Assembly (NCBI GenBank): GCA_944384405.1 | Contig: CALWTH010000041.1 | Span: forward strand, 65,394 to 129,393 | From: an uncultured Clostridia bacterium | GTDB taxonomy: Bacteria; Bacillota; Clostridia; Christensenellales; UBA1242 | Direction: 5' to 3' | DNA: 64,000 nucleotides | In this document: one piece after another, positions 2,830-60,777 of the stretch | How the letters are laid out: each line of letters opens with the position of its first letter | How positions within the stretch are numbered: the first letter of the stretch is position 1 | The notes under the pieces: model-generated | Database searches by the model: none | What the model was told of the DNA's origin: nothing | What the model saw: the letters and a program-made list of their open reading frames with translations, nothing else | Made by a program: the position numbers and the translations under genes

Positions 2830-3431
2830 GTATCCTCCTTTAAATACTTGTATGCCTTTTTTGGTTTTATCGTTTCTTTTTCGCGGGCAATGACAAAATC
2901 TCCTTTGTCTGTATTTTTAGTCAAAGTGGTACCTGCACAAATATATGTTTGGTCAGCAACTTCAACTGGTGCTATTAAGTTTGTATTGCTACCAATAAAA
3001 CAATTTTTACCAACTTTTGTGATATGTTTTTTCTTGCCGTCATAGTTTGCAAAAATAACCCCACAACCAACATTTGTATTTTCCCCTACTTGTGCATCGC
3101 CTATGTACGCCAAATGACTTGCCTTTGTGCCACTATGCAAAGTTGCGTTTTTTATTTCAACAAAATTTCCCACTTTGCAATTATCACAAACTTTTGCGTT
3201 TGGTCTGAGTCTTGCAAATGGTCCCACTTTCACATTTTCACCAATTACACAATTTTGCAAATTACTATTACTAATTTCGCAGTTTTTTCCAATAGTTGAA
3301 TCTTCTATATAGTTAAACGGATAAACTATTGTATTATCACCAATAACAGTATTCCCCTTTATGACATTAAATGGGTGAATTGTCACATTTTTTCCAATCA
3401 CGACACTTTTGTCTATAAAAGCATATTCCAT
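2826..3431 (-). CDS. Stand-alone GlmU C-terminal-type hexapeptide-repeat acetyltransferase (GlcN-1-P N-acetyltransferase domain only)
   Basis: Aligns by eye along its whole length with the C-terminal domain of GlmU (GPFARLRP...GNFVEIK...KASHLAYIGDA...GCGVIFANYDGKKKH...IGSNTNLIAPV). No uridyltransferase domain. Start moved to ATG 3431 (GAGGAG RBS). Confidence 0.75.
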   Translation of the reverse strand: MEYAFIDKSVVIGKNVTIHPFNVIKGNTVIGDNTIVYPFNYIEDSTIGKNCEISNSNLQNCVIGENVKVGPFARLRPNAKVCDNCKVGNFVEIKNATLHSGTKASHLAYIGDAQVGENTNVGCGVIFANYDGKKKHITKVGKNCFIGSNTNLIAPVEVADQTYICAGTTLTKNTDKGDFVIAREKETIKPKKAYKYLKEDT

Positions 3432-4083: not shown

Positions 4084-4659
4084 TTATTCAGTTTTTTCTT
4101 TTGGTTCTTCTAATTGTTCATCTGTTTCAACTGTTTGTTCAGATGTTGGTTGTGCTGGTTGTTCAGTCGTTGGTTGTGCTGGTTGAACTGTTTCAGCTGA
4201 TTGAGTCGCTACTTGTGTCTTTTTTGATTTAGCAAGCATAACGAGTGTTGCAATAGAAATAGCAATTTCCAAAACAACAAAAGCATATCCAGGTGCAGCA
4301 AAACTTTCTGTCAAAGCAATTATAAGTATGGTTATGACCAAAACAAAGAAAATGTTGAAACCTGCAAGAATTTTGTTTGCCTTATGGCAGCCTGCATAAA
4401 GTTTTTCACTTTTCATGACACCTAGATTGCAAAGAAGCAACAAAGCATATAGAACTATTAAAGCAATTACAGAAAGCAACAACAAAAGCAAAAACAAAGC
4501 CCAAGCAATATATACTCCACCAACTTCAAACATAGCGCTAATTAGACCAAGATAACTAAATGCACTTACTCTTGAAACAAGAGGCAAAGCGAAGAATATT
4601 AATGCAAGCACGCTAAGTCCAAGGCCTATACTGTCAAAAATCAGTTTTCTGCTTTTCAT
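4084..4659 (-). CDS. Hypothetical multi-pass membrane protein with Q/P/T-rich C-terminal tail
   Basis: AGGAGG RBS. About four hydrophobic helices. Tail QPAQPTTEQPAQPTSEQ. Confidence 0.7.
   Translation of the reverse strand: MKSRKLIFDSIGLGLSVLALIFFALPLVSRVSAFSYLGLISAMFEVGGVYIAWALFLLLLLLSVIALIVLYALLLLCNLGVMKSEKLYAGCHKANKILAGFNIFFVLVITILIIALTESFAAPGYAFVVLEIAISIATLVMLAKSKKTQVATQSAETVQPAQPTTEQPAQPTSEQTVETDEQLEEPKEKTE
4145..4192 (-). repeat. 24-nt in-frame tandem duplication in the tail of the membrane protein
   Basis: GTTGGTTGTGCTGGTTG occurs at 4145 and 4169 and encodes the duplicated QPAQPT(T/S)EQ. Confidence 0.7.
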
Positions 4660-4875
4660 ATTTTCCTCCTTTTTAATATCAAATTTATGTTATCATTTTA
4701 TAAAATTTTATGTCAAATATATATAAAAAAAAATTATAAAAATTACGATTTTTTTATATAATTTATACTTATTTCATTATTTTAGGTGATGTTAAATATG
4801 GCAAATTTAGTATTATAGAATATTAACTATATATATCTAAAAAAATATTTTATAATAGTTGCAAGAAGTTAAAAA

Positions 4876-5187
4876 ATGGAAGAAAATCACAGTGATATTA
4901 TTAATAGATTAAAGAAATCAAAATTTAGAAATTCATTTAGTTTAAAACAAAAAGATTTTGATTATATAAATAGAGTCGGAATGGATACAATTGGCAGACA
5001 TTGCTTTGACTTTGTGACAAAGCGTCTAAAAGATCCAAGTCAATTTACAGATGGCAAACAAACACCATTTAAAGGTCACCCAGTATTTATTGCTCAGCAT
5101 GCAACTGCAACTTGTTGCCGAGGTTGTCTAAATAAATGGCATAAAATAGAAAAAACACACATAAAAATACAAAGCGCTGCCACCTGA
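4876..5187 (+). pseudogene. DUF4186-family gene, 3'-truncated
   Basis: HPVFIAQHATATCCRGCLNKWH is the family hallmark as I recall it. Roughly 25 C-terminal residues normally following WH are replaced by unrelated sequence running into the integrase fragment. Confidence 0.55.
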
Positions 5188-5506
5188 AATAAGAACTAAA
5201 TTTTTAGAAGCAGTAAGCAAAGATGATGCGAACTTTATTAAACCACTTTGTATTTGTTTAATGTTCTCTGGACTTCGTATTGGCGAAGCTCTTGCTCTTA
5301 AGTGGCAAAACATTGACTTTGAGAATAAAACTCTCAAAATTGAACAAGCAATAACACAAATTCCAAAGTTTGATAACGAAGGTAATGTGATAAATCGTGT
5401 AACGGTTGTTGGAGACACAAAAACAACTTGTAGTGTCCGAGAAATACCCGTTGCAGACATAGTTATAGAAGTAAATGTTGAATTTGTTAAAAACCATATG
5501 ATATAA
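5165..5506 (+). pseudogene. Tyrosine integrase internal fragment
   Basis: FSGLRIGEALALKWQNIDFENKTL is homologous to residues of the intact integrase (578-1519). It lacks the N-terminal domain and the H-x-x-R / Tyr region. The frame opens only at 5165. Confidence 0.8.
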
Positions 5507-5512
5507 TGCTAA

Positions 5513-5550
5513 AAAAGGTTGAAGAAATGTTATGTTTCTCCAACCTTTTG
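5513..5550 (+). terminator. Hairpin after the integrase fragment (weak terminator)
   Basis: AAGGTTGaAGAAA-tgttatg-TTTCTcCAACCTT with only a short T stretch after it. Confidence 0.35.
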
Positions 5551-5578
5551 CATTTTATAAGGAAGTATGATATAATAC

Positions 5579-5908
5579 ATGGAGAAAGGTCCTAGTACTT
5601 ATGCTGAATACTGGACAAGTCCATATGCTGAAGTGGAACACTATATTAGGCATGGGAGGCAAATGGGATTTGAAAAAATAGAAGAATATTCAAAAGCGGC
5701 AAAAGGGTTTGCGTCGAAAAAAAGTGATAGTATATTATCTTTTACTGCCAATGAAAACAAGCATTATTCTACATATAAATACGACAAACAAACAAATGAA
5801 TTTATGATTATTTCTAGAAGTGGTAAAATAGTAACATATTTTCCACCTAAAAATGGTATTGAGTATTTATATGAGCAATATGAAAAATGGGGAGACTATT
5901 GGAATTAA
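5579..5908 (+). CDS. Orphan toxin-like module (colicin-D/BECR-type RNase C-terminal domain-like), no delivery domain
   Basis: 109 aa with H-Y-I-R-H-G near the N-terminus and YKYD..TNEF.I....GKIVTYFPPKNGIEY near the C-terminus. This pattern resembles RNase toxin tips of polymorphic toxins. No convincing RBS, and a stop lies 2 codons upstream. Confidence 0.35.
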   Translation: MEKGPSTYAEYWTSPYAEVEHYIRHGRQMGFEKIEEYSKAAKGFASKKSDSILSFTANENKHYSTYKYDKQTNEFMIISRSGKIVTYFPPKNGIEYLYEQYEKWGDYWN

Positions 5909-5921
5909 AAAGGAGAAACTT

Positions 5922-6230
5922 ATGAGTAATAGTATTAAAAATAAAAATAGAGAAATTATAGAATTTCCACCATACAAGTGTAAAGTGTGTGGTATGGGGA
6001 ATATTGAACATTCTTATGATATTTGCCAATTTTGTGGTTGGGAAGATGATGACATACAAAATGAAAAACCAGACTATATGGGTGGTGCAAACGAAATGAG
6101 TTTAAATCAGTATAAAAAATTCTGGGATGAAAATAAATTCGAAATTTTGTCTAATCTAAAAACTAACAGATTTTATGCCATAGAAAAGTCACAGGAATAT
6201 TATAATAGGATATTTAAAAACAAACTTTAA
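5922..6230 (+). CDS. CPCC-family cysteine-rich protein, copy 1
   Basis: AAGGAG RBS. C-x2-C...C-x2-C-GWEDD followed by PDYMGGAN..SLNQYKKFW. Starts 13 nt after the toxin-like ORF. Confidence 0.7.
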   Translation: MSNSIKNKNREIIEFPPYKCKVCGMGNIEHSYDICQFCGWEDDDIQNEKPDYMGGANEMSLNQYKKFWDENKFEILSNLKTNRFYAIEKSQEYYNRIFKNKL

Positions 6231-6251
6231 GTTTAGATAAAAATATTGAAT

Positions 6252-6566
6252 ATGAAAAATACGGATATAGAAACTAATAAAACCCCCAAATTAGGTATTC
6301 ACCCATACAAATGTAAAATATGTGGATTGGGACACATAGAGAATAGTTATTCAATATGCATGTTTTGTGGTTGGGAAGATGATGACATACAAAACGAACA
6401 ACCAGATTATATGGGTGGTGCTAACCACATGAGCTTAAATCAGTATAAAAAGTTTTGGCAAGAAAATAAAGAAGAAATATTAAAAGCAGATAACACTTGT
6501 TTTAAAGCAATTGATTTAGCAAAAAAATATTATGAAATAAATTATAAAAATCATAAGTTGAATTAA
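6252..6566 (+). CDS. CPCC-family cysteine-rich protein, copy 2 (tandem paralogue)
   Basis: About three quarters identical to copy 1 by eye. Nucleotide stretch 6364-6470 is nearly identical to 6034-6140. Confidence 0.65.
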   Translation: MKNTDIETNKTPKLGIHPYKCKICGLGHIENSYSICMFCGWEDDDIQNEQPDYMGGANHMSLNQYKKFWQENKEEILKADNTCFKAIDLAKKYYEINYKNHKLN

Positions 6567-6601: not shown

Positions 6602-6910
6602 ATGAAAGAAAAATATGAAGTAGATAACAACTTAATACAAGAAAAAACTGAATATGATAAAGAAAAGTTAACAAAGAAACTTAAACTTGTAAGAAATGAA
6701 TTTACAACGGTTGGCAAATATAATATGCCTCTAATAAAGAAACAAGATATAGATTTGAACAAGATTGATTTATGGAATTATACAAAAACAAAGTTGCAAG
6801 ATGAAGATAATAAGAACAAAACAATTCACTTCTTTACTTACGATTGGTTATTTGAAAATGTATATGAAAAACCAGAATTGGCAATGGAAAAATTATCACA
6901 TGGATTTTAA
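6602..6910 (+). pseudogene. DUF4417-family gene, N-terminal fragment only
   Basis: AGGAG RBS. GKYNMPLIKKQDIDL...KTIHFFTYDWLFENVYEKPE matches the family N-terminus from memory. Ends after 102 aa where full-length members continue. Confidence 0.5.
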
Positions 6911-7499
6911 TACAGAAACAAAAACTCAAACTTTAATTGATATTATTGCCTTGTGTGGTAGATGTCATGGAGTTAAGCACATAAGGAATTCCCAAAGGCT
7001 AGGTTTTGAAGAAAATGCAAAAAGACATTTTATGAAAGTTAATAATTGTAACGAGTTGGAATTTGCAACACATTTAACCAAAGCTCAAATGGAATTTGAA
7101 GAAAAAAATAAAATTTATAGATGGAAAATGGTTGCAAATTTAGAAAAGTTTGGTGGTAAAGATATAAAAATTAAGGAAAATTATATTCCGTTAATAGATA
7201 GTGATTACACGCAAGATGAACTTGTAGAACTTAAAAAAGAATATAAATTTACACCAAGAATTTTAGATATCGGTATAAATAATTATGAAGGAACAATATC
7301 TATAACTTGTGATAAAACTAATAAGATTGAATGGTATGATAATAAATTGAATTTAATAGACACAAAATTTAATTTCAGTGAAAAGTTTATAACTAAATTT
7401 TCTGTTAAAAATTTAGATTTGCCATATATAACTTTTAAATTAACTGGCGATTATGGCGAAAAAGTTTCGAAGAGATTTAATTTGATTGCATATAAATAA
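6900..7499 (+). pseudogene. HNH-endonuclease-family C-terminal fragment plus unknown C-terminal region
   Basis: LIDIIALCGRCHGVKHIRNSQ...AKRHFMKVNNC matches only the second half of an HNH family. The first Cys/His half is missing. ATG 6900 overlaps the preceding stop by 11 nt. Confidence 0.4.
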
Positions 7500-7725: not shown

Positions 7726-7801
7726 TGGAGCTGATGACGGGACTTGAACCCGTGACCTCTGCCTTACCAAGGCAGTGCTCTACCTGCTGAGCTACATCAG
7801 C
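7726..7801 (-). tRNA. tRNA-Thr (anticodon GGT), CCA encoded
   Basis: Hand-folded 76 nt. Acceptor GCTGATG/CATCAGC (perfect). D arm GCTC-AGCAGGTA-GAGC. Anticodon arm CTGCC-TTGGTAA-GGCAG. T arm ACGGG-TTCAAGT-CCCGT. Ends TCCA. Confidence 0.9.
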
Positions 7802-9483: not shown

Positions 9484-12400
9484 TTATACATTTATTGTTA
9501 TAGTGTTTGTATATAGCACAATTTCTTGTTGTGGCGTTTCGGTACTACTTAAATTGTCATAAATCGCAATGTAAAATTTAATAATAACATTAATTTCGGT
9601 TATATCACTTGACGAATCACCTGACGAATCATTTGACGAATCACTTGCTAATAACATTAATGAGTAATTACCATTATCATTTATCAGTAAAACATTTTGG
9701 TCATCACATGTAGCACTAATAAATATATCATCTACGCTCACACTATACATATTTGATAGCAAGGTGAATATGTTTGTATAATTTTCATCTTTTATTCTGG
9801 TTGAAGTGTATGTTATATCATCACCTTCTGTTACATTAATTGTCAAGCCCTCTTGTTCATCTTTATATAAGAACGAGAACTTAAATTCTTGTCTATTGCT
9901 ATCAATACCATATTCAATAACCAAAGATATTATCTTGTTGTTATATGCTGAAAAATCCATTGAGGTAATTAAAATACCATCTGAAACAAATTCAAGATTT
10001 AATCCATTATTTGATTTTCCATTGATATAGAATGTAGCGGAAGGATTTGTTGATATTGAACTAAATGGATAATCGTCAATATCATCAACAGTACTGATGT
10101 AAATAAATTTAGTTGTTTGACTTTCTTGTGACTCATCATCTACAAATGTCTGCACTTCGTTATAGCCAAAAACTTTTACGTCAGAAAAATCAATAAGATT
10201 ATTGTTTACAAAGTTAGTTGTGCTTTGTCCTGCCTGCATAATCAAAGATGATTCTCCAATAATTTTATCAGTACTTGCATATGTATTTACAGTTATTGTT
10301 CCATAGACTGTCCCTGAAATTGTGTCATCATTTTGTGACAGGTTGTTACCTATGGTGTAAGTAAATGTTGTAACAATTCCATTTGTCACTTTTGAATAAA
10401 CAACATTTTTGGAACCTACTAAATAATTGTAACTACCAGATTCAGACTCCAAATCAAATATCTTTGCTCCAGAATCTATATTACCATAAATGTTTCTAAG
10501 TTTAATTTTAGGAAGTAACATTTCAAATACTGCACCTTCATCACCTGAAGAAATAGATTCATACATTGAACTTGATACAAGGCTATTTGCAGTGTATCTA
10601 CTGTCAACAAGAGTGATATTATCAATTCTCACTCCTGTATCGTTGTCACCTTGCAACTTGACAATTAGATAGACATTAGATACATCGTTGTTAAATGTTA
10701 TTGAATCATTGCCAAGGCCAAGATTAATCACGCCCAAACTTAAGTCTTGATTTGCAGAGTCATAAATATCTATGGTTGTATTAGGAAAACGATATTTTAT
10801 ATCATCACCAGTGTAGACATTTGACTTTCCATCTGAAATGTTAAGCATTTGAACAATATCATTTGTCAATATTTTGTAAGTATTTGAAGCACCATCTTGA
10901 ATTCTTGGCAACATTGGAACATTGACCACAATCGAATATGTTGCAGAGTTTGCGTCAGAGAAATATAATCTTAATGTATCAATATATTCAAAGTTGTTGC
11001 GAGCTTGACCATAAATTGTATATATGTCAAGCATAATATAGTTCGTATCCAAATTGAATCCTGGCAAAAGTGTAATTTCGCCTGTGTCCGCATCAACTAC
11101 GACATATTGACTGCCTGTTGATTGTGCTGTATTAAGGTAATATTTAAAATCACCACTATTATTGCTAAGTGTTGTGTCATCTGAAGCAACAAATGATGTT
11201 GCTGACGTGTAACCTGCCACGAGTGTGAATGGCCTATATGTTGTTCCTGCCCATACATTTATACTAATATTATTATTATTAACTGGATCATATGAATTTA
11301 GCACGACATCTTTTGCTTGTTCTGAACCATATGCTTGTGTTGAATCAATATCAATATACTTCAATGTTATCCAAATTTCTGGACTGAATTTTTCAACTGC
11401 CTTTTTAGCCACTCCATTGACAAAACCATAATTGACTTTAACATTTATAGCGCTTGGAGCGTACTTAATGTTCAAACCATCATTACTGATTAAGAATTCT
11501 GCATCACTTGGTATGTATTTTGTCATGCTATATGTATCAGTATCGACAACATCTTGACTACCGGAAACGCTTTCAAACTCAATACCTTTAAGTTGTGCCC
11601 ACTGTTTTACACTTAAACCATTAATAATAGTTCTTTCACCATTTGTGTAAAGTGAAACTTTTTCTCCACGAGCACTATTTATAACTCCAAGTTCACGAAG
11701 AGAATAGGTTACCCTTGAATTAGTATTTGAATCCAAACTAACATTACGCACTTCGCCAGCCTCATTGACAAAGTATACATTCAACTGAGAATTATTTTCC
11801 ATTTGTCTTAAACCAATTGACAAACTTTGGTCAGATATGATGTAACTGCTGTTTATCCTGATTGTATACTGTTCATTCACATCCACTGCTGCGTCTTCAC
11901 GATAAGTGTAATAAAACGTTGCATCTTGTGAAACACTTTTGTAGCCTGAACTTGTTTCTGAAGATAAATAATATGTAGTTAAAGTTTTTCCGTTGTAATA
12001 AGAGAAAGAGTGCTCATCTGTGGAAATCTCAGATAGTTCATTGTTCTCATACTCATAATTTGTAACAATATAAGTTATTTGGAATTGATAGTTACTAATA
12101 TCTGTTATATCAAATATATCTTCAATTGAAATGTATACAGAAGATGAACTATTGATAGGAACTGTTTCTGTTATGACCTGATTATTTTGCAGATTTTTTG
12201 CTCTTATAATCAAAGACAAAACATTATACACACTATCCAAATAAACTTTTTGATTTCTTGAATTTAAAATGGTGTAATCAAAGTAAATTGTGTGCGAGTC
12301 TTTTAAACTTCTTTCTCCAACCGTATAGTTTTGACTATTGTCAACAACATCAACAACATCAAGCAAACTAAATGGAACGCCATCTCTTACATATGGAGTA

Positions 12401-15400
12401 TCAGTTGTTGTTAAACTATATCTTTCAAGAATTGTCGTTGGAATTTGAATATCAATTTGATATCCGCTTTCGTCTTTTGCACTTATCGATAATATTCCTG
12501 ACAACCTGCCACCAACAAAATAAACATAGTCAATCATGTCAATATTAAAGTAAACTGAGTTGGAGTCACTAATAAGGTCTGTTTTTATTAATTGCTCACC
12601 ACTATCTGTTGTGAATTTTGCAGTCCAATTACTACTAAAGTCAGTAAGTTTCAAATCAGGAATACCAGAATCACGAGGTGTGAAAGTAATAGGTATTGTG
12701 TGGTTATAATTATTTGTTGTTGTTCCTCTATCAACAAGAGCAACTGAATCTAGTTCAAATGGAGTTAGTGAACTTGTGCTGGATGTAACATTGTATTGAG
12801 CGACAATTGTGACATAATAAACAATTTTATATCCATAAGCATCAGTTAATACAATATCAACATTTCTATTGCCATATTTGATGTCTGTAAATTTGAAGGC
12901 AAGGTCATAGTTTTGCTCAGTTTGCTGGAATTGAAGCACATATTCGCCACCTTGGTTATATTTTACATTAAACAAAGGTGCAACATTGCCTATCTGATTT
13001 TGATTTTCATTTTTGTGTTGAATATAAATGAAGTTGTCAATAGGTTCTTCACTTCCCCAATGGGCAAAAATTATATAATCAACAAAATTATAATCGCGAA
13101 TCAAGTTTCTATTTGATTCAGAGTTTTCTGTTCCGTCTGAATTTTTCAATGACTCATTTTCGTAGTCGTGACTTACAACAAATGTAAATGTGAAATCTTT
13201 TATTATTGAACCATAAGAAACTGTCAAAACAAGTTCCACCGTCACAGAAGTCTCTTTTGGAGAACCATAAGCCATAAAGTTATAGTCATAGTTATATCCT
13301 TCGCCCTCAGCAGCGGTGTATCTTAAATATCCAGTGTTGGTTATAAGATTTTGATATTCAGGATTTGTTGCTCTATATGAAATTGTGCCTTCAATATTTA
13401 AACTTAACCCTGTACTTGAAAAATCCGAATCGACATAATATGTTCCATTTGAACTTCTCTTCATGTTTATAAGGCTAACATAATTTGCATTGTTATTTCC
13501 TATTCCATTATGAAGAACACTTGTATTTTGACCTGCCGATAATTCAATATTTTCTGAACTTTCAAATTCAATATCAAAGCCATAGTTTACATAATAAGTA
13601 CCTATTGACGTACCATTTGAAACGCTTTGTCCATTTCTTGAATTAACATATATTGATTTTGCTATTAACTGTTCTTGTGTTAAAGCATCTTCCCCAGTTG
13701 TTTGTTGCAAAGAACAATTAGTTCCACTAAGTAAACCATATGTCTTAAAGAAATCAATGTTGTTATATTGCGTTGTAACTGATGCACCATCACCAAATGA
13801 TGTGACAGTCCTATATGAAAGGAGAATTCTTGATTCAAAAGATACCTCTATATTATTCCATGTGTCGTCGGTTATGATAACTGGGACATATTCCCCTTCC
13901 TGAGAAAGTTCGCATATTTCCCACTGAACACCAGTGTCACTTGAAACAAAGTTTGTCATGTCTGAAACGCTTAATGATGTTAGTGTTGCAAACAATGAAA
14001 TTTGGTCACCTTGAGATCCTTCTGCCATAGTTACATAGTCTGCTTCTGCTATGACACCATTTATCATTATCGGTCTTATATATTTTGTTGTTGAAAGGTC
14101 AGCATTTTCTGGGACTGTGAGTGTAAGACGGATTTTTGTAAGCAAGTCATCATTTGAAGCAATATATATGTTTTCTGGGTTATTTGAATTATTGTTTGAT
14201 GAATCAGTGTTATAGTTAAATCCTGCAAATCCATAGATGTTGTTCATAACCACAACATTATAAACACCAACTGGGATATATGTTTTATCATCAAGAGATT
14301 GATCACCAAGAGAATAATATAGTCCAAATTGAAGACTTAAGCCATCATAAACACTTAAACCTTCACTGCCCTGAATATTAAACACAGTGCTTAGAGCGTA
14401 ATATTCATTTCCAACATTTGCACCATCAACATAAACATATTCTGAGCCACTGCCAACTTGAACATAGATATGTTGTTCATGCTCAGCATCTTCGCTTTGA
14501 ACTTCAACACGTGCATTATCTGCTAAATCTGCAACATCTGCAAGTGAAATAATATTTTGGGCATTTTCTGATGAATCAAACCAATATGACTCTGCAACAC
14601 TGACAACGCCATCGTTTGGCAATGGATAATTTGTGATAATGGTGAAGTTAGATGAAAGTGTGAATTTGAAATATGAACTCATCACCAGTACATCATCACT
14701 ACTTACGGTGTTATAATATGAGATTCTAAATGACAATTCGGTCACATTTGCCACTTCACTTATATTTAGTTGAACAACATAATGGTTATTTTCATTTAAT
14801 ACAACACTTCCTGAAAAGTCACCATAAACATTTTGAGTAATTAGTTCAACGTTAAATCTACCAAGTCCATTGTCCACAACATTTTTATACCAAGCATCAA
14901 AGTCATCGCCTGCAAAATCAAATAAAGATGACAAAATGTCGACATTTTGAATTTCACCTGCTTTAACTCCATAAACTGGCAACATGTTATTTTGAGAAAT
15001 TTGTTGGTTATTTGTTGACGAAACTTTTAATGTTGACTTGATTTTTAAATTAAAATCAAAATTGTATGCAACATTTTGCGTGCCATCAGTAAATTCAAAC
15101 CTTATTTTTGTAACAACATTTGTATCTTCTGTGACAAGTCCAATATTTAGACTTTTTGCCGCATCATCATAGTACAAAGCCGAATTTTGTGTAACAATTT
15201 CAACTATAATATTATCAAAATCATTGAATGTTTCACCTGTATCTTCTTTGACAATTTCAAATGTATTAGCAATATCAATAATATTGCCCGAAATAATTTC
15301 GTATGTGCCTGCTGTAGTTTCAACAAGTCCTGATGTGTTTGTTTCAACAATATTTATTTTATAATTTGAAAGAACATATAATCTTACAACATCTAGAACC

Positions 15401-18400
15401 CCATATTTTGTATAGAATACCATGTTGGTATTCCAATTTTCTGTTGTGTCATCAGCATATAGCGTCATTGTATCATAGTCAATATAAGCATTTTGACCTT
15501 GAATATTAGTTGCAACAATATAATAATTCAAAAGATTATTTGCTGATGTTTCGCCAGATGATGCATTGAAACTTATTGATAGAGAATACATTCCTTCAAG
15601 CAAAAGTCCTTCATCGCCTGCTTTTAAATTGATATCTTCAATATTAGTTGATGAAACACCCTCTTGTGTACGCTGAACAAAAGTGAATGTAGGTATTTCG
15701 CCAACACTTAAATAATAATATGCTTCAAGTCCGCTTGCAGTGGTCATACCCACCTTGACTCTAACATATTGAGCACCATTTCGCCTTATTGTCACAACAC
15801 CTTCCGAAGAAACTTGTGCATACTGAGAAACATTTGTTGCTGTGAACCAATCATAGAAATAATATGCAACTTCTGAAATTGTGAATGTCAATTTAGAATA
15901 TGGAGTTAGTTCTGTTTGTGGAATAAATGTTCCATCTTTGAGAGTTCCAATGACAATTCTTTGGTTATATTGATAGTTTGGAATTAAACTATCAAATCTA
16001 GCAAGAAGATCAGCGCTTGCATTGCCACTATCATCAAAACTTAAATACTCCATATCGTATGTCACATTCTTAACATCGCCATGAAGTGCAGTCCCTGTTA
16101 TGTTCCCATTTGCCGAATATGTCATCATGTATGGATAATAAATGTGAACATCAAGCATTTTTTCTATTTTAATTAAATAAGGAACAACTAAACTGGTGTT
16201 AGCCAAGTTTAATTTTGCCTCAGCAATAACAAACGTACCATTTCCACCAACAGGTTCAACAAACAATATTCCATTTTCAAAATGAGCATAAATATTTAAG
16301 TCACTATCATCTATATTTTTAACAGATAAAATAGAATTTTTTAAATATCCTGATAGCCCATATTGCTGCGTTTGTTCATCTATAAAAATATTGTAACCTT
16401 GAGTGTCGTATTCGGAAATTGTGTAGTAAAGTCCATTGTCCATAACCCATTCGATGTCAAGCAAGTCGCGAAGGTCATATTCCTGCCCAGCAATTTGATT
16501 TGGATAAATTACATATGGCAAATCAAAAGGAAGAAGCAATATGTTGAACGTGATGCTATCGCCATTACTTAGCACAAGTTGTGCAGTGTTTCCTGTTATT
16601 AGGTTGTTATTCACACCTTGAATAGTAATAGTGTCACCTTGGACAGTAATTTCATTTGTGTTTTCTATATTAAGTTTAGATGAAATTTGTGCTGTGCTGT
16701 TTTGTGCTTGTGAAATTGTGAAAGCCTGTATGATTTCATCAGAAGTGTATTGTTCGCCGTTTACAAACTTAAGATAATACTCACCATCATAAAGCACCCA
16801 CATTGTGCTATCTTGATTACGTGTTATATTTGGACGAAGAGTTAATGTTATTTCATATGTCTTTCCGTCAGATGTCAAAACATCAACGCCATTATATGTA
16901 ACTATTAGTTTAATGGTTGCACTATTTTGAATATTTGCAAGACTATAAATTATAAATTCATCTTGATTGCCATTTCTTTGAATAACATAATCGTGAGAAT
17001 AACTATCGTCAACAAATTTAAAACCGATTTGAGAATAATCAATGTCAAAGTTTACATTGTCAGAGTTATGAATTCTACTTATGCCAAGTGGTGCGTTTTG
17101 TGCTCCCAAAAGCGTTGCACTACCATAATAACGGTTTGTGTTATTGATTGTGTCAAAAGCAACATCAAGCAAAATTTCATCACTAGATTGTGTAACCATG
17201 ACGTTTGGATTTATATAAAGATAAAGCGAACTTGATGCATCAACACTTGCATTTGTTAGCAAGTCATTTTTTTCAAGTGCAAGCATAACGCGCCTATATC
17301 CGTTATCTTTGTTTAAAGATTTAAACACTATATAAGCATCATAAATATATTCAAAAGTAGAGCCATCAAGTCTATTAACGGAATTGTTAGTAACTTCTCC
17401 ATCTGTCGATTCAAAGCTTTCTATATAAGCATTTGCGCCTGTATCTGTTGTTGTTAGTAAAAGCCTATCACCTAGTTCGCCGTTTTCATCATATTCGTAT
17501 AGATATAACGAATACGATGAATTGTCGACAAGGAAATTTTCAGAGCCTGTGCCGGCATGATAGTTGAGCATAAATCTAACATGATAAAGTGAATCGGCAT
17601 AAACACCGCTATATATCACATTTCCAACACTAGAAATAGGTTCAACATCATAATTGTTATCATATGGATTTAAAGCAGTGGAAACATTGCTTGCTATATC
17701 AAGTACTACTATCTGTGAAATTCCAAGTGCAGCAACTGTTATATTAAGTTGTAAACCAAATGGCTTACCAAAATCTTTTAGAATAGATATGGTGCTAAGA
17801 TTTGATGCAGTGCCACCAAAGTTAACATAACCTTCTAAAGTTGTGATGTCTTGTTCATTGACAAGTGCAATATTCATAAGATTTGTAAGATATCCACTTT
17901 GTGTGTTTGATGAATAATAATATGTCAATAGGTTGACTTCACCTGCCGTTGTTGATTTTAAATTGATTATTGAGCCTGCGTATCCAACTATTTGAACAGA
18001 AAGCTGAGCAAAATCATATGGTACAGTTGAAAGATCTGTGCTATATTCTTGCACTGAACTTTTGGTGTATGGATTTTCGGCACTCTCTACCAATTTATCA
18101 ACTCTTGAAACATAGCCATCTTGCTCACAACTAAAATATAATGTGTCTTTGATTGTTCCTTCTGCGTCACGGAGATAAACTTCAACATCTCCCGCACCAT
18201 TAAATGTGAAGGAATTGTTTGAAACGGTTAATATTGATGTGTTTGAACTTTCAAGAGTATAATTACTTGAAATTGGCAACTTTCCGTATTTGTCATGAAG
18301 TGTTATTGCAAGGGTTGAATAATCAACTTCTCCAAGGTCGCTTGTTTCAAAAAGCATACCACTAACATCATGCCCATTAACCATGTATGATGTATTTATG

Positions 18401-20793
18401 TTATTTATATAATTATTTTCTGCAGTAATGACGGTGTTTACCAAAATTCTATTATCGGCGCTTGACTGATAAATTCCGTCTTCTTGAATGTTTACGCTAA
18501 AGTCAAAAACAGTTGCCGAGCCATCATACACTTCAATACATTCAAATGTCTGACCATCATTATAAGTATTTACCTCATATTCAATAGGTTGATCAAGTGC
18601 ATCATTTTCATAAACAACATATAGTTTTATTCTGCGTTCACTCACCCCATCGGAAAGTGCACCAATATTCATTGAAAATACAAATTGTGCGCCGTCATTT
18701 TGCTCTGTGTACGAAACTGAATAAATAAGTGATGTTTGCGTGTTTGAATCTTCTATTTTTGCAACAACATAAATGTCGCCATTAATGACTGCATTTTTAA
18801 ATATTTGCTGTTCATTTATTTGGTCACTTTGATTTGCTGACTGAGGTAGTGTGTATTCAACAACAACTTCAAAAGGTGATGTCGTGTTTTGCACATAAGC
18901 AATATCATTAGCTTCACTTATTGTGAGCTCATCATCAGCAAGTGCTGTTTGAATGTGATTTTCAAGTCCATACAATGTCTTGTCAATATACAATTGTAAA
19001 GTGGAAATAGCATTGAGGTCGTCTTGGCTGTATCTTTGAATGACATATCTACCGTTTTCATCAAGTTTTGGATTTGCCTGATAATCAGTTTGCACGGTCA
19101 TAAACAAAATATCAAATGTGTGACCATATGCCTCTGTTGATTTTGGTTCAATTATACCATTATCAATTTCATAAAGCGTCACTGTTTGTGCCCCAAGTTG
19201 ATACTCGGCAGGCTGATTGCTTATTGTGTTTATCAAATCGGTGACTTGATATTGCATTGAACTAACGACAAAATATCTGCGTGTTTGATACAAGTTGGAT
19301 TGTGGAACATAAGCAAAATCTGAAGCATCAAAAGAAGTCATAACAGGATTTTCACCATCAATTATCGTTAAAGTCTGTGATGTTGATGTCCAATAAATAC
19401 CGGCATCAGTAATTGCGTTTGTTGAAAAATATGTAGTTTGTGGTTCAACTTCACTAGCAGTGTTACCGAAATATCTTGCTTCAATAACAAGATTGTTAGC
19501 ATCAACATAATTAGAAACGGCAAATCGCCAATAATAATCATCTACGCTTGATGTGATGACTGGGAAATAGAATGTATAAACTTGCCCTCCTATTTCGACT
19601 TCTTTTGTGTTACCATAACCATATGAAGGCAAGGATACAATGTTGTATGCATCGTTTTCACTATTTACTGCATCATAGTAGTTGTTGCCAACCTTATACA
19701 AAAATCTTATTGCAACATTGTCAAGTTCATGCTGTAAAGAAACTGTTCTGTCAATTTCAGAATAAAGATGAATTCCAAGATTTGATTGCGTTGCAGTTTG
19801 TGAAACATCTTTATTTACATAAAGTGTATTGAGTTTGTCAATATCAACACTTGCCACTGAGCCTTCAATACGCATACTATCAACTTCAACATTTACTATT
19901 TCCACAGTTTTTGTTGTTCTGTGTGCTCGCAACGTCGTTGCCGTATCGTCTGTTGAAAGTTGATAAAGGTTAGCAAGTATTGCTGAATATTGTGCCTCTT
20001 CGTCAAGGTTTTGAAGTCCAAGCAATATTTCTTTTTCAATTGATGCTGATGAAAACACATAACCAACTATTGTACTTGAACCGATGCGGTTTGTTAAAAA
20101 GGCGTTGGTGTGCCCATTTTGTGAAATATTTTCATCTGTGTTTGATAACAATGTGAAATATGTATTTTTATATACTACTTCTCCATCTGACCCATCATGG
20201 CTATATTGATATGCGCTGCGTGCTGGATAAAATTTTAAACTTGCATTTATTGTTGAACCAATGGCAAAAGTGTCACTGTTATCATCTGTCGCACTTACTC
20301 GCGTTTCAAGTTCAACATCGTAGACAGGGACATCTACATTGACTTTTGCACTAATTGAATCAATTCGTTGGTTTTTGGAAGTTGCCGTGATTACACTATG
20401 CCCGCCTGTTATCCAGTCTTGTCCAAAGCATTCTTCATCGTGCATAGTCTTTTCAAGCACGACCAAGAAAGGCTCGCCTATTGTTGCCGTTTGAGGAATA
20501 GAAATTACTCCATCACTAATTCTAACTTCACCATTATTTTCAGTATATGGTTCACCATTTTGCAAACTTAAAGTAAGTTGTGTTTCTGTGACGTCTTGTG
20601 TGGTTGAAGAAATGGTAATTGAAAAATCACTATCAACATTATATTCTGATAAGTTAAAGGTAATATCGGCAGGCAAAACAGTAGGCTTGCTGAAATATCC
20701 CGCTATCGCCATGATACCGACTCCAATTCCAATTGCACCCACAAAACTTGCTAGTGCTATTGCAAAAACTTTTAAAAATGTAGTGAATTTCAT
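9484..20793 (-). CDS. Giant surface protein 1 (3,769 aa): N-terminal membrane anchor plus long non-identical beta-rich (Ig-like) region
   Basis: Uninterrupted 11,310-nt ORF. GGGAG RBS. Residues 1-37 are hydrophobic (FAIALASFVGAIGIGVGIMAIAGYF). The rest is N/S/T/Y/D/V-rich and Cys-poor, with no GLUG motifs and no C-terminal sorting signal. Confidence 0.8.
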   Translation of the reverse strand: MKFTTFLKVFAIALASFVGAIGIGVGIMAIAGYFSKPTVLPADITFNLSEYNVDSDFSITISSTTQDVTETQLTLSLQNGEPYTENNGEVRISDGVISIPQTATIGEPFLVVLEKTMHDEECFGQDWITGGHSVITATSKNQRIDSISAKVNVDVPVYDVELETRVSATDDNSDTFAIGSTINASLKFYPARSAYQYSHDGSDGEVVYKNTYFTLLSNTDENISQNGHTNAFLTNRIGSSTIVGYVFSSASIEKEILLGLQNLDEEAQYSAILANLYQLSTDDTATTLRAHRTTKTVEIVNVEVDSMRIEGSVASVDIDKLNTLYVNKDVSQTATQSNLGIHLYSEIDRTVSLQHELDNVAIRFLYKVGNNYYDAVNSENDAYNIVSLPSYGYGNTKEVEIGGQVYTFYFPVITSSVDDYYWRFAVSNYVDANNLVIEARYFGNTASEVEPQTTYFSTNAITDAGIYWTSTSQTLTIIDGENPVMTSFDASDFAYVPQSNLYQTRRYFVVSSMQYQVTDLINTISNQPAEYQLGAQTVTLYEIDNGIIEPKSTEAYGHTFDILFMTVQTDYQANPKLDENGRYVIQRYSQDDLNAISTLQLYIDKTLYGLENHIQTALADDELTISEANDIAYVQNTTSPFEVVVEYTLPQSANQSDQINEQQIFKNAVINGDIYVVAKIEDSNTQTSLIYSVSYTEQNDGAQFVFSMNIGALSDGVSERRIKLYVVYENDALDQPIEYEVNTYNDGQTFECIEVYDGSATVFDFSVNIQEDGIYQSSADNRILVNTVITAENNYINNINTSYMVNGHDVSGMLFETSDLGEVDYSTLAITLHDKYGKLPISSNYTLESSNTSILTVSNNSFTFNGAGDVEVYLRDAEGTIKDTLYFSCEQDGYVSRVDKLVESAENPYTKSSVQEYSTDLSTVPYDFAQLSVQIVGYAGSIINLKSTTAGEVNLLTYYYSSNTQSGYLTNLMNIALVNEQDITTLEGYVNFGGTASNLSTISILKDFGKPFGLQLNITVAALGISQIVVLDIASNVSTALNPYDNNYDVEPISSVGNVIYSGVYADSLYHVRFMLNYHAGTGSENFLVDNSSYSLYLYEYDENGELGDRLLLTTTDTGANAYIESFESTDGEVTNNSVNRLDGSTFEYIYDAYIVFKSLNKDNGYRRVMLALEKNDLLTNASVDASSSLYLYINPNVMVTQSSDEILLDVAFDTINNTNRYYGSATLLGAQNAPLGISRIHNSDNVNFDIDYSQIGFKFVDDSYSHDYVIQRNGNQDEFIIYSLANIQNSATIKLIVTYNGVDVLTSDGKTYEITLTLRPNITRNQDSTMWVLYDGEYYLKFVNGEQYTSDEIIQAFTISQAQNSTAQISSKLNIENTNEITVQGDTITIQGVNNNLITGNTAQLVLSNGDSITFNILLLPFDLPYVIYPNQIAGQEYDLRDLLDIEWVMDNGLYYTISEYDTQGYNIFIDEQTQQYGLSGYLKNSILSVKNIDDSDLNIYAHFENGILFVEPVGGNGTFVIAEAKLNLANTSLVVPYLIKIEKMLDVHIYYPYMMTYSANGNITGTALHGDVKNVTYDMEYLSFDDSGNASADLLARFDSLIPNYQYNQRIVIGTLKDGTFIPQTELTPYSKLTFTISEVAYYFYDWFTATNVSQYAQVSSEGVVTIRRNGAQYVRVKVGMTTASGLEAYYYLSVGEIPTFTFVQRTQEGVSSTNIEDINLKAGDEGLLLEGMYSLSISFNASSGETSANNLLNYYIVATNIQGQNAYIDYDTMTLYADDTTENWNTNMVFYTKYGVLDVVRLYVLSNYKINIVETNTSGLVETTAGTYEIISGNIIDIANTFEIVKEDTGETFNDFDNIIVEIVTQNSALYYDDAAKSLNIGLVTEDTNVVTKIRFEFTDGTQNVAYNFDFNLKIKSTLKVSSTNNQQISQNNMLPVYGVKAGEIQNVDILSSLFDFAGDDFDAWYKNVVDNGLGRFNVELITQNVYGDFSGSVVLNENNHYVVQLNISEVANVTELSFRISYYNTVSSDDVLVMSSYFKFTLSSNFTIITNYPLPNDGVVSVAESYWFDSSENAQNIISLADVADLADNARVEVQSEDAEHEQHIYVQVGSGSEYVYVDGANVGNEYYALSTVFNIQGSEGLSVYDGLSLQFGLYYSLGDQSLDDKTYIPVGVYNVVVMNNIYGFAGFNYNTDSSNNNSNNPENIYIASNDDLLTKIRLTLTVPENADLSTTKYIRPIMINGVIAEADYVTMAEGSQGDQISLFATLTSLSVSDMTNFVSSDTGVQWEICELSQEGEYVPVIITDDTWNNIEVSFESRILLSYRTVTSFGDGASVTTQYNNIDFFKTYGLLSGTNCSLQQTTGEDALTQEQLIAKSIYVNSRNGQSVSNGTSIGTYYVNYGFDIEFESSENIELSAGQNTSVLHNGIGNNNANYVSLINMKRSSNGTYYVDSDFSSTGLSLNIEGTISYRATNPEYQNLITNTGYLRYTAAEGEGYNYDYNFMAYGSPKETSVTVELVLTVSYGSIIKDFTFTFVVSHDYENESLKNSDGTENSESNRNLIRDYNFVDYIIFAHWGSEEPIDNFIYIQHKNENQNQIGNVAPLFNVKYNQGGEYVLQFQQTEQNYDLAFKFTDIKYGNRNVDIVLTDAYGYKIVYYVTIVAQYNVTSSTSSLTPFELDSVALVDRGTTTNNYNHTIPITFTPRDSGIPDLKLTDFSSNWTAKFTTDSGEQLIKTDLISDSNSVYFNIDMIDYVYFVGGRLSGILSISAKDESGYQIDIQIPTTILERYSLTTTDTPYVRDGVPFSLLDVVDVVDNSQNYTVGERSLKDSHTIYFDYTILNSRNQKVYLDSVYNVLSLIIRAKNLQNNQVITETVPINSSSSVYISIEDIFDITDISNYQFQITYIVTNYEYENNELSEISTDEHSFSYYNGKTLTTYYLSSETSSGYKSVSQDATFYYTYREDAAVDVNEQYTIRINSSYIISDQSLSIGLRQMENNSQLNVYFVNEAGEVRNVSLDSNTNSRVTYSLRELGVINSARGEKVSLYTNGERTIINGLSVKQWAQLKGIEFESVSGSQDVVDTDTYSMTKYIPSDAEFLISNDGLNIKYAPSAINVKVNYGFVNGVAKKAVEKFSPEIWITLKYIDIDSTQAYGSEQAKDVVLNSYDPVNNNNISINVWAGTTYRPFTLVAGYTSATSFVASDDTTLSNNSGDFKYYLNTAQSTGSQYVVVDADTGEITLLPGFNLDTNYIMLDIYTIYGQARNNFEYIDTLRLYFSDANSATYSIVVNVPMLPRIQDGASNTYKILTNDIVQMLNISDGKSNVYTGDDIKYRFPNTTIDIYDSANQDLSLGVINLGLGNDSITFNNDVSNVYLIVKLQGDNDTGVRIDNITLVDSRYTANSLVSSSMYESISSGDEGAVFEMLLPKIKLRNIYGNIDSGAKIFDLESESGSYNYLVGSKNVVYSKVTNGIVTTFTYTIGNNLSQNDDTISGTVYGTITVNTYASTDKIIGESSLIMQAGQSTTNFVNNNLIDFSDVKVFGYNEVQTFVDDESQESQTTKFIYISTVDDIDDYPFSSISTNPSATFYINGKSNNGLNLEFVSDGILITSMDFSAYNNKIISLVIEYGIDSNRQEFKFSFLYKDEQEGLTINVTEGDDITYTSTRIKDENYTNIFTLLSNMYSVSVDDIFISATCDDQNVLLINDNGNYSLMLLASDSSNDSSGDSSSDITEINVIIKFYIAIYDNLSSTETPQQEIVLYTNTITINV
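9605..9648 (-). repeat. 12-nt in-frame tandem repeat (about 3.5 units) near the 3' end of giant gene 1
   Basis: TCACTTGACGAA / TCACCTGACGAA / TCATTTGACGAA / TCACTTGC, encoding SDSS-NDSS-GDSS-SD. Confidence 0.8.
20683..20793 (-). other. N-terminal signal-anchor / signal peptide of giant protein 1
   Basis: MKFTTFLKVFAIALASFVGAIGIGVGIMAIAGYFSKP. No lipobox Cys. Confidence 0.6.
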
Positions 20794-40763: not shown

Positions 40764-40813
40764 TTTCTCTCCATTTTTTGCCATAGTTTGCTTTTCCCCC
40801 TTAAACAGTGCTG

Positions 40814-60700: not shown

Positions 60701-60777
60701 AGCAACTCCTCATCTATTCATCTATTGTTTTCAAATTTTGGTTTTATTATTACATAATAAACCAACTTTATATGCTT

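Follow-up and report, generated by a model that had tools for sequence, protein, structure and literature searches.

The predicted toxin gene and its CPCC neighbours

The 64-kb window analysed here, the whole 64,000-nt stretch of contig CALWTH010000041.1 from an uncultured Clostridia bacterium, carries three small genes in a row on its forward strand between 5579 and 6566. The first, ORF1 (5579–5908, +), encodes a 109-aa protein that we assign to subtype I of a stand-alone family of predicted RNase toxins of the colicin D and CdiA-CT (O32:H37) type. An in-frame TAA at 5573–5575 lies two codons 5′ of its ATG, and the protein carries an H21-Y-I-R-H25-G motif as well as the C-terminal motif YKYD..TNEF.I....GKIVTYFPPKNGIEY. 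CPCC-1 (5922–6230, +), a 102-aa zinc-ribbon protein of type A, starts with the ATG at 5922, 13 nt after the ORF1 stop and behind AAAGGAG. It is followed by CPCC-2 (6252–6566, +), a type B protein of 104 aa whose likely start is the ATG at 6252 rather than the TTG at 6246, which is also open. ORF1 contains no signal peptide, delivery domain, LXG/WXG, RHS, VENN or other trafficking domain. An earlier note, made from the sequence alone, had described the length of ORF1, the stop upstream, both motifs and the missing delivery domain, together with a 102-aa CPCC protein 13 nt downstream with a good ribosome-binding site and a second CPCC copy behind it, and all of this was borne out. Its remark that ORF1 lacks a convincing ribosome-binding site holds for the window, where the Shine–Dalgarno sequence is weak (AAGGAAG, 13 nt 5′ of the ATG), but not for the relatives, which carry AAGGAGG.

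No Pfam family matched ORF1 at E ≤ 1, the Colicin_D model included. Searches with NCBIfam and PADLOC models retrieved nothing for it, and the PHROGs gave one weak match only, to the C-terminus of a portal protein (E 0.1). The best PDB sequence match was 8ey4_A (‘PT-VENN domain-containing protein’), retrieved at E 0.0067 with the single sequence and at E 1.3e-5 with a profile of 26 family sequences, for which the colicin D tRNase domains came next at about 0.06; 8ey4_A was the only credible PDB sequence match. An AlphaFold (AF2) model of ORF1 built on the family alignment reached a predicted local distance difference test score (pLDDT) of 95.8, with helices at 15–29 and 34–46 and four strands at 52–88. 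This is the BECR alpha+beta core, in which N-terminal helices pack on a four-stranded antiparallel sheet. In Foldseek, the top six matches of the model were 8ey4_A and colicin D only, and those at E <0.002 comprised exclusively 8ey4_A and four colicin D entries. The template modelling (TM) score was 0.85 against 8ey4_A (root-mean-square deviation 1.5 Å, 27% identity) and 0.5–0.6 against colicin D 1tfo, 1v74, 5znm and 1tfk (Foldseek probability 1.0). The earlier note had seen in ORF1 a colicin-D/BECR-type RNase domain like those at the tips of polymorphic toxins (CdiA, RHS, WXG); profile and Foldseek searches confirm the fold and the class. A search against toxin families had been proposed there, and it came out negative in Pfam and positive, for the contact-dependent inhibition (CDI) toxin 8ey4_A and colicin D, at the level of profiles and structures. 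Profile and model together strongly support a colicin-D-like, BECR-fold toxin with predicted RNase activity, giving a family so far named ‘hypothetical protein’ by NCBI a well-founded assignment. Colicin D cleaves the anticodon loops of tRNA-Arg and, by homology, ORF1 would most likely cleave tRNA in the anticodon loop as well.

The alignment of ORF1 with colicin D pairs H25 with the catalytic H611, H21 with K607, R24 with K610 and T86 with S677. In the first motif, H21-Y-I-R24-H25 stands opposite K607-K-Y-K610-H611, Y22 taking the place of K608; in the last strand, T86 within GKIVTYF is aligned with S677 within EFLSGW, at a position that is T or S family-wide. The two proteins therefore share a BECR-type fold, a catalytic histidine in a basic-residue–His motif and an aligned Ser/Thr on strand 4, but they are only 12–16% identical (1V74, 1TFO, 1TFK and 5ZNM), ImmD is unrelated to CPCC, and translocation and receptor domains are found only in colicin D. 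H21, H25 and F75 are invariant across the 26 family sequences. Essential residues of colicin D include D614, K607, K608, H611 and S677 (Zhang et al. 2012, PMC3482391), and H21, R24, H25 and T86 are the putative active-site residues of ORF1. The missing Pfam toxin match and Q28 (in HGRQ), which stands where colicin D has the acidic D614 and leaves ORF1 without the Hxx[ED] feature, would fit a catalytically dead or repurposed BECR-fold protein, with CPCC serving another role. We consider this extremely improbable, as H21, H25 and the strand-4 Thr/Ser are conserved and an inert protein would have no use for so strict a pairing with an immunity homologue. The position equivalent to 28 is E or D in most relatives, Q in subtype I, and also E, Q or K in relatives linked to RHS or WXG proteins.

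A HMMER scan of 1.84 billion representatives retrieved 1988 relatives of the toxin domain at E ≤ 0.001. Among the matches listed, the domain forms the C-terminal end of the longer relatives; those examined were RHS/YD-repeat proteins (P0171, P0184, P0199 and P0145) and a WXG100-type protein (P0147). In these delivered relatives the domain begins GWTS..NL..HF..HG.E.GF, so the WTS in the N-terminus of ORF1 is part of the domain itself.

Both CPCC proteins match PF14206 (Cys_rich_CPCC) well above its cut-off of 24.5 bits (CPCC-1, E 5e-13, 49.0 bits; CPCC-2, E 2e-12, 46.9 bits). C20, C23, C35 and C38 are invariant in the family and form a CxxC ... CxxC-GWEDD zinc-ribbon core. The model of CPCC-1 (pLDDT 85) shows the zinc ribbon, a GGAN loop and two C-terminal helices, and Foldseek matched it to 8ey4_I and 8ey3 only (46–47% identity, TM 0.83). 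Profile searches against the PDB likewise led from CPCC-1 to 8ey3_A/8ey4_I (‘Cys_rich_CPCC domain-containing protein’) at E 3e-15, and CPCC-2 alone reached E 1.9e-12. Toxin and CPCC of the window thus correspond by homology to the two partners in a single solved complex, the CdiA-CT/CdiI pair of E. coli O32:H37 (8EY4, with the immunity protein alone in 8EY3), which makes the CPCC proteins the likely immunity partners of ORF1. The likeness extends to the CxxC...CxxC-GWEDD...GGAN core and presumably to the gene order, toxin first. However, the toxin of 8EY4 is the C-terminal domain of a large CdiA behind a PT-VENN junction, exported by type V secretion, whereas ORF1 stands alone with an invariant N-terminal decapeptide. 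At their C-termini the window CPCC proteins are also extended by two helices (about 40 aa), which are not the same in type A as in type B, and the host of the E. coli system is a proteobacterium while that of the window belongs to the gut Clostridia.

The family to which ORF1 belongs, marked by an N-terminal MEKGPS, was found in 32 species-level genomes, all of them metagenome-assembled genomes of uncultured gut Clostridia or Christensenellales. A CPCC gene starts between −120 and +450 nt from the end of the toxin gene in every locus with downstream sequence (31/31), which upholds the earlier proposal that CPCC proteins are candidate immunity proteins and answers the question of co-occurrence raised with it. 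Structural homology and this adjacency strongly support a toxin-plus-immunity reading, in which the CPCC zinc-ribbon proteins would bind and block ORF1 as in 8EY4. CdiI proteins of BECR toxins generally cover the active site (review PMC9086364). The same note had suggested that such a pairing would be a new toxin–immunity assignment. That suggestion falls, since 8EY4 and 8EY3, released on 2023-11-08, already show CPCC bound as immunity to this type of toxin; what is new is the stand-alone, polymorphic format linked to DUF4417 and HNH genes. A literature search found no paper on 8EY4, on PF14206 as an immunity family or on CPCC with a toxin, and Zhang et al. (2012, PMC3482391) assigned Imm64 and Imm22, not CPCC, to Tox-ColD. 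CPCC, a Pfam family for which we found no published function, would accordingly be a broad immunity partner, of E. coli CdiA, of RHS-type proteins and of stand-alone genes in gut Clostridia.

The two CPCC genes had been noted as near-identical over about 100 nt and the duplication taken to be recent. The identity is real at an offset of 333 nt, where 6031–6137 and 6364–6470 agree at 96 of 107 positions (90%); the register first given, 6034–6140 against 6364–6470 (offset 330), yields 36%. No other part of the family members is as well conserved as this 107-nt core (GWEDDDIQNE.PDYMGGAN.MSLNQYKKFW), and the remainder of the two genes is at most 59% identical, the proteins being 58–62% identical. 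Each window copy is closer to its orthologue elsewhere (91.5% and 94.9%) than to its neighbour (85.5%), and dS between CPCC-1 and CPCC-2 is 1.36. On these values a recent duplication is rejected; by this sequence comparison the two genes are old paralogues, with apparently different partner specificities.

Subtypes, cassette exchange and the stand-alone format

The toxins fall into subtypes, each followed by its own type of CPCC. Subtype I toxins (HY.RHGKQMGF...QYEKWG.HWN; the window and loci L001, L015–L017 and L042) always have a type A CPCC (..NRFYAIEKSQEYY) as the first downstream gene. Subtype II toxins (HFY.HAYDMGY...QFDKYGDYWN; L018–L024, L026 and L046) are followed by a type B CPCC (..NTCFKAIDLAKKYY), which is their sole partner. 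Subtype I is found with both type A and type B in the window, L001 and L015. Because type B otherwise partners subtype II toxins, CPCC-2 appears to be an orphan immunity gene: CPCC-1 is best read as the cognate of the subtype I toxin, and CPCC-2 as an immunity gene, either left behind or acquired, that is directed at the subtype II sister toxin of related bacteria. The split between types A and B provides a ready-made specificity test. Pairwise identities across 20 distinct loci give the same picture, with r = 0.87 between the toxin and its adjacent CPCC, 0.57 between the toxin and DUF4417 and 0.51 between the toxin and HNH. The partial r for toxin and CPCC, given DUF4417 and HNH, is 0.83, a value reached in none of 2000 permutations.

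Comparison of the window with the subtype II locus L023 reveals a mosaic. Identity is 95–98% in nucleotides over 5470–5620, which covers the leader and the first 14 codons, drops to 50–80% in the body of the toxin gene, and is 97–100% from ~6367 to ~6670, with the extra CPCC of the window missing from L023. Locus L015 has the same right-hand breakpoint (95–98% over 5470–5620, 97–100% from ~6367). Since identity breaks at these points, the leader with the N-terminal codons would be the left recombination anchor and the CPCC core the right one. On this sequence evidence, toxin and first CPCC have been exchanged together, as one cassette, with nearly identical sequence on either side.

Warfare with polymorphic toxins is typically marked by an additional, non-cognate immunity gene and by the swapping of cassettes, and all characterised or recognisable relatives of the domain are delivered ones (CdiA in 8EY4, RHS/YD and WXG100 proteins). 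ORF1 could on these grounds be a between-cell weapon, exported or handed to a carrier and killing neighbours that lack the matching CPCC, with CPCC-2 guarding against subtype II. MEKGPSTYAE would perhaps act as a recognition tag for an export or carrier route not encoded nearby; these first 10 residues are invariant in a family with 46% mean column identity, and the peptide itself is selected. We hold this reading to be possible but rather unlikely. ORF1 has none of the trafficking domains listed above, no secretion genes were found within ±5 kb of the toxin in the 32 genome loci, and its constant neighbours, DUF4417 and an HNH nuclease, are of phage families of the DNA-metabolism type. The window and the loci showed no CdiA or CdiB, and ORF1 does not follow a VENN junction as a CDI toxin does.

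ORF1 was described in the earlier note as an orphan toxin tip, a view that its family does not sustain. A word-indexed search covering 5.8 billion proteins retrieved 47 clusters, of which the complete ones measure 105–113 aa and none exceeds 134 aa; the shorter clusters come from sub-kilobase contigs or from partial coverage of the query. No Pfam domain was detected in any of the 47. The N-terminus MEKGPS..A.YWTS is common to all members, and its first 10 residues do not vary although their synonymous sites do, so the peptide itself appears to be under selection. Across the 47 loci the stop-to-stop frame opens at most 37 codons before the start codon, and usually 0–2. Initiation signals are also kept, with ATG in all loci except L015 (TTG), behind AAGGAGG or GAGGTG in nearly all. 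Against orthologues, dN/dS is 0.11–0.16 for ORF1, 0.05–0.14 for CPCC-1 and 0.22–0.28 for CPCC-2. Judging by these patterns, ORF1 belongs to a maintained, expressed gene family under purifying selection and is not debris. Its own conserved ATG, Shine–Dalgarno sequence and leader, the nearby stop and the purifying selection, with no full-length gene sharing its junction found in the protein clusters, genome loci and metagenome contigs searched, mean that it is no stranded tip.

Orphan cdiA-CT/cdiI and rhs-CT/rhsI modules were reportedly described by Poole et al. in 2011. Such modules resemble the window module in their tip-sized toxin gene followed by immunity, in their additional immunity genes, in junction recombination and in their location on islands (Zhang et al. 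2012, PMC3482391). Classic orphans, however, lie 3′ of a full-length gene, usually lack initiation signals of their own and share a pre-toxin junction, none of which is true of the window module. The reading of the earlier note would make ORF1 a silent orphan tip, kept in reserve until it recombines with a full-length LXG, Rhs or CdiA gene elsewhere in the genome. In its favour, stand-alone toxin cassettes are a recognised element of polymorphic toxin loci (Zhang et al. 2012, PMC3482391). The conserved 5′ segment might be used as a handle for homologous recombination, and in some islands there are several small toxin-like genes, each with a gene for a CPCC-domain protein behind it. We nevertheless regard a silent store as very unlikely. 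The would-be handle occurs only at the extreme N-terminus behind a stop, in the 47 protein clusters, in the 32 genome loci and in all matches (6/6) to a degenerate DNA pattern for EKGPSTYAEYWTS in metagenome contigs, where the stop lies 1–2 codons upstream and no full-length gene was found. An HMM search detected no second toxin domain in the 64-kb window, and the 5 kb on either side in the 32 genome loci contain no full-length toxin gene; a full-length toxin whose 3′ end could recombine with the cassette, as the earlier note had envisaged, was not encountered in these searches. The conserved ATG, Shine–Dalgarno sequence and leader and a dN/dS of ~0.13 are those expected of an expressed gene.

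One metagenome copy of the toxin (L060, match at 4088–4125, −) is truncated after GKIVT and continues in frame with sequence resembling a cell-wall hydrolase (3D/RlpA type); this fusion is probably a deletion product.

The leader contains two promoter-like sites and a hairpin. The first site, P1 (5478–5507, +), consists of TTGAAT, an 18-nt spacer and TGaTATAAT and is conserved in related loci (within the segment that is 95–98% identical in L023 and L015). A conserved hairpin follows at 5505–5554 (+), with stem arms AAGGTTGAAGAA...TTCTCCAACCTT and a U-rich tract behind it (minimum free energy −20 kcal/mol, z = −3.0). It may act as a 5′ stabiliser, an attenuator or a terminator; it had no Rfam match, and a simple terminator scan made no call. 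Distant loci have a hairpin at the same place with a different stem sequence. The second site (5547–5576, +; TTTGCA, an 18-nt spacer and TGaTATAAT) ends 2 nt before the ORF1 ATG, and in nearly all loci (e.g. L007, L009, L022, L030, L032 and L038) a perfect extended −10 box (TGnTATAAT) lies directly against the start codon of the toxin or overlaps it. In distant loci, where it overlaps the ATG, it coincides with an extended Shine–Dalgarno sequence (GGAGGTGAT) plus spacer. A role of the box as a mark of leaderless mRNA was rejected, because the box either overlaps the ATG or leaves just 2 nt in front of it. Transcripts initiated here would not include the toxin ATG and might serve to express only the immunity gene; the box could also simply arise from the extended Shine–Dalgarno sequence and its spacer.

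DUF4417, HNH and the mode of deployment

Downstream of the pair, the family loci share two further genes, DUF4417 (25/28 loci) and an HNH-type nuclease of about 258 aa (26/28), and a tyrosine integrase, of 464 aa in other genomes, often lies directly 5′ of the module. Toxin and CPCC genes often overlap, with the toxin first and the pair on mobile DNA. Two more distant stand-alone relatives are followed by CPCC (L049) and by CPCC and DUF4417 (L056). Among delivered relatives, L051 and L054, an RHS-type protein and another, are followed by CPCC-like zinc-ribbon proteins, and the RHS protein P0171 and the WXG protein P0147 have a partner of a different family, of 138–143 aa. DUF4417 matched phrog_940 (‘nuclease’, E 2e-55), and an intact homologue of the HNH protein matched phrog_5200 (HNH endonuclease, E 1e-31) and Pfam HNH (0.02). 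The DUF4417 domain is phage-enriched and often fused to ParB-CTPase folds (bioRxiv 10.1101/2025.10.10.680097). Nothing useful came from PDB sequences when they were searched with profiles of DUF4417 and of the HNH partner. Searches of IMG/VR viral contigs and of GenBank phages retrieved no relatives and so gave no evident sign that phages carry the module.

These constant neighbours raise the possibility that the whole four-gene module is a defence or mobility system, in which DUF4417 and HNH would act on DNA (restriction or homing). The tRNase would then be a latent second effector, held by CPCC and freed on a DNA-level challenge, by analogy with PrrC masked by EcoprrI. Such a system would account for the presence of DUF4417 and HNH in nearly all loci, of DUF4417 even with the distant stand-alone relative L056, and for their phage nuclease-type PHROGs. 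The two genes co-vary (r = 0.84) and are far more conserved than the toxin (mean identity 81% versus 59%), and CPCC is fused to DUF4417 in four loci (L027 5321–6418, L033 5364–6494, L041 5293–6432 and L044 5293–6201; proteins of ~365–380 aa). We judge it unlikely all the same. PADLOC gave no match for toxin, CPCC or HNH and a marginal one for DUF4417 (E 0.003, 15 bits, to a type II methyltransferase model), the fusions may be simple losses of a stop codon, and the pair persists without DUF4417 or HNH in L002–L006, L028 and L031, and in the window after its deletion. Equally doubtful, in our view, is a more specific version in which toxin, CPCC, DUF4417 and HNH are a single undescribed system. 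The tRNase/CPCC pair would be its variable effector and DUF4417/HNH the constant part that replaces a delivery domain, with MEKGPSTYAE as a docking tag, and it would serve phage defence through a latent, PrrC-like anticodon nuclease or be a self-mobilising homing cassette. Whatever their role, stand-alone genes linked to DUF4417 and HNH do not fit the picture of a delivery domain with a variable tip, and they offer an entry point to the function of DUF4417.

The reading that we consider probable is that of a free-standing tRNase toxin and its CPCC immunity, forming a polymorphic cassette at the head of a conserved module (toxin, CPCC, DUF4417 and HNH nuclease). The module would travel on small integrative islands beside a tyrosine integrase, inserted at tRNA-Thr or an amidase gene of gut Christensenellales/Clostridia. 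The sequences themselves show that both partners have homologues in a solved complex, that the genes are strictly adjacent and co-vary, that the locus is a recombination mosaic and that its flanks have decayed, and from this RNase activity, neutralisation through binding and the mode of deployment are inferred. Our best guess for its deployment is inside the island-carrying cell, as an addiction, exclusion or abortive-infection toxin–antidote pair, which is suggested by the lack of an export signal, delivery domain or secretion genes, by the toxin-first overlapping operon and by the island location. A small toxin and a small antidote in one, often overlapping, operon on mobile DNA resemble a type II toxin–antitoxin system. 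In MqsR/MqsA, the toxin gene likewise comes first and encodes an RNase of about 100 aa with a RelE/BECR fold, neutralised by a protein of similar size with a four-cysteine zinc-binding, toxin-binding domain. The analogy is limited to the layout, as no relationship was detected by sequence or Foldseek, and MqsA has a C-terminal helix-turn-helix for autoregulation whereas CPCC shows none.

Several observations, besides the missing Pfam match and Q28 discussed above, sit uneasily with this probable reading. The window copy of ORF1 has its Shine–Dalgarno sequence, 13 nt before the start codon, weakened to GGAAG, and none is visible for CPCC-2. Pfam detected no helix-turn-helix, ribbon-helix-helix or AbrB domain in CPCC, which thus lacks a recognisable DNA-binding domain of the sort usual in type II antitoxins. 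The correlation between toxin and CPCC could reflect the linkage of neighbours rather than physical co-evolution. An orphan immunity gene and the exchange of cassettes are typical signs of warfare between cells and speak against a purely intracellular action. Considering DUF4417 and HNH, the unit of function may also be larger than the toxin–CPCC pair.

Further pairs of small genes were observed 3′ of HNH in several islands (L015 7575–8344; L027 7514–8826, −; L039 7974–9204 and 9481–10308; and L034). Each consists of a ~95-aa protein starting with MGMCKPSG and a ~150-aa protein with an N-terminal CPCC zinc ribbon. The body of the MGMCKPSG protein matches the C-terminus of the phage ‘toxin’ family phrog_18811 (E 2e-6), and a profile search of the extra small toxin-like protein of L015 against PDB sequences gave nothing useful. 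These pairs suggest that CPCC is a general immunity module in such islands.

The island in the window

The earlier note had placed the genes in a decayed island, and remnants on either side of an intact toxin–CPCC pair agree with this. On the left, an integrase remnant at 5163–5470 (+; ORF 5261–5506, 81 aa) corresponds to the middle of the 464-aa integrases only, the catalytic C-terminal part being missing. Pfam Phage_integrase matched it at E 1e-5 over profile positions 34–60 only, and in blastn 5163–5470 matched the integrase genes of L019 and L024. On the right, an N-terminal remnant of DUF4417 (6602–6900, +; ~100 of 243 codons, Pfam E 2e-9 over profile positions 3–62 of 183) is fused to a C-terminal remnant of HNH (6902–7499, +; part of ORF 6765–7499, phrog_5200 E 2e-11) by a single deletion of ~620 bp at 6900/6902. 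All intact loci align up to 6895–6900 and resume at 6902, with ~620 nt of their own sequence in between. The deletion has cost DUF4417 its C-terminal ~140 codons and HNH its first ~60, and with these the initial CxxC and the His-Glu part of its HNH motif. The island would be immobilised and half decayed, with a toxin–immunity pair that remains intact and apparently under purifying selection.

The module is bordered by a tRNA-Thr(GGT) gene at 7726–7801 (−; ARAGORN; Rfam tRNA, 76 bits), the likely integration site of the island. Partial copies of tRNA-Thr flank or follow the module in L023 (7421–7576) and L015 (1199–1245 and 9021–9100), as expected of att sites. The GC content is 26.6% in the island compared with 32.5% in the window.

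A DUF4186 gene (4876–5187) covers profile positions 2–89 of 109 only and continues into the integrase remnant; the island probably cut it short. In L007, L027 and L043, modules lie in the 5′ end of a gene resembling N-acetylmuramoyl-alanine amidase (in L027 at 3209–3391, 4717–4872 and 7252–7443). Each insertion leaves a 5′ fragment of 50–70 codons ending in ...VIDAGHGG, with up to three in tandem and no integrase nearby, a pattern that suggests insertion of a site-specific or homing type.

More than half of the window is taken up by three giant ORFs on the reverse strand (9484–20793, 31290–40835 and 40817–60709, −; 3769, 3182 and 6631 aa). The toxin domain occurs in none of them; the 3769-aa ORF has a membrane helix at its start and no Pfam match. 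Near the left edge of the window, a tRNA-Asn gene (418–492) is followed at once by an intact tyrosine integrase of 331 aa (524–1519). This integrase is ~70% identical in nucleotides to the one directly 5′ of the toxin module in L018 and L021, and possibly lies at the boundary of a second or an older island.

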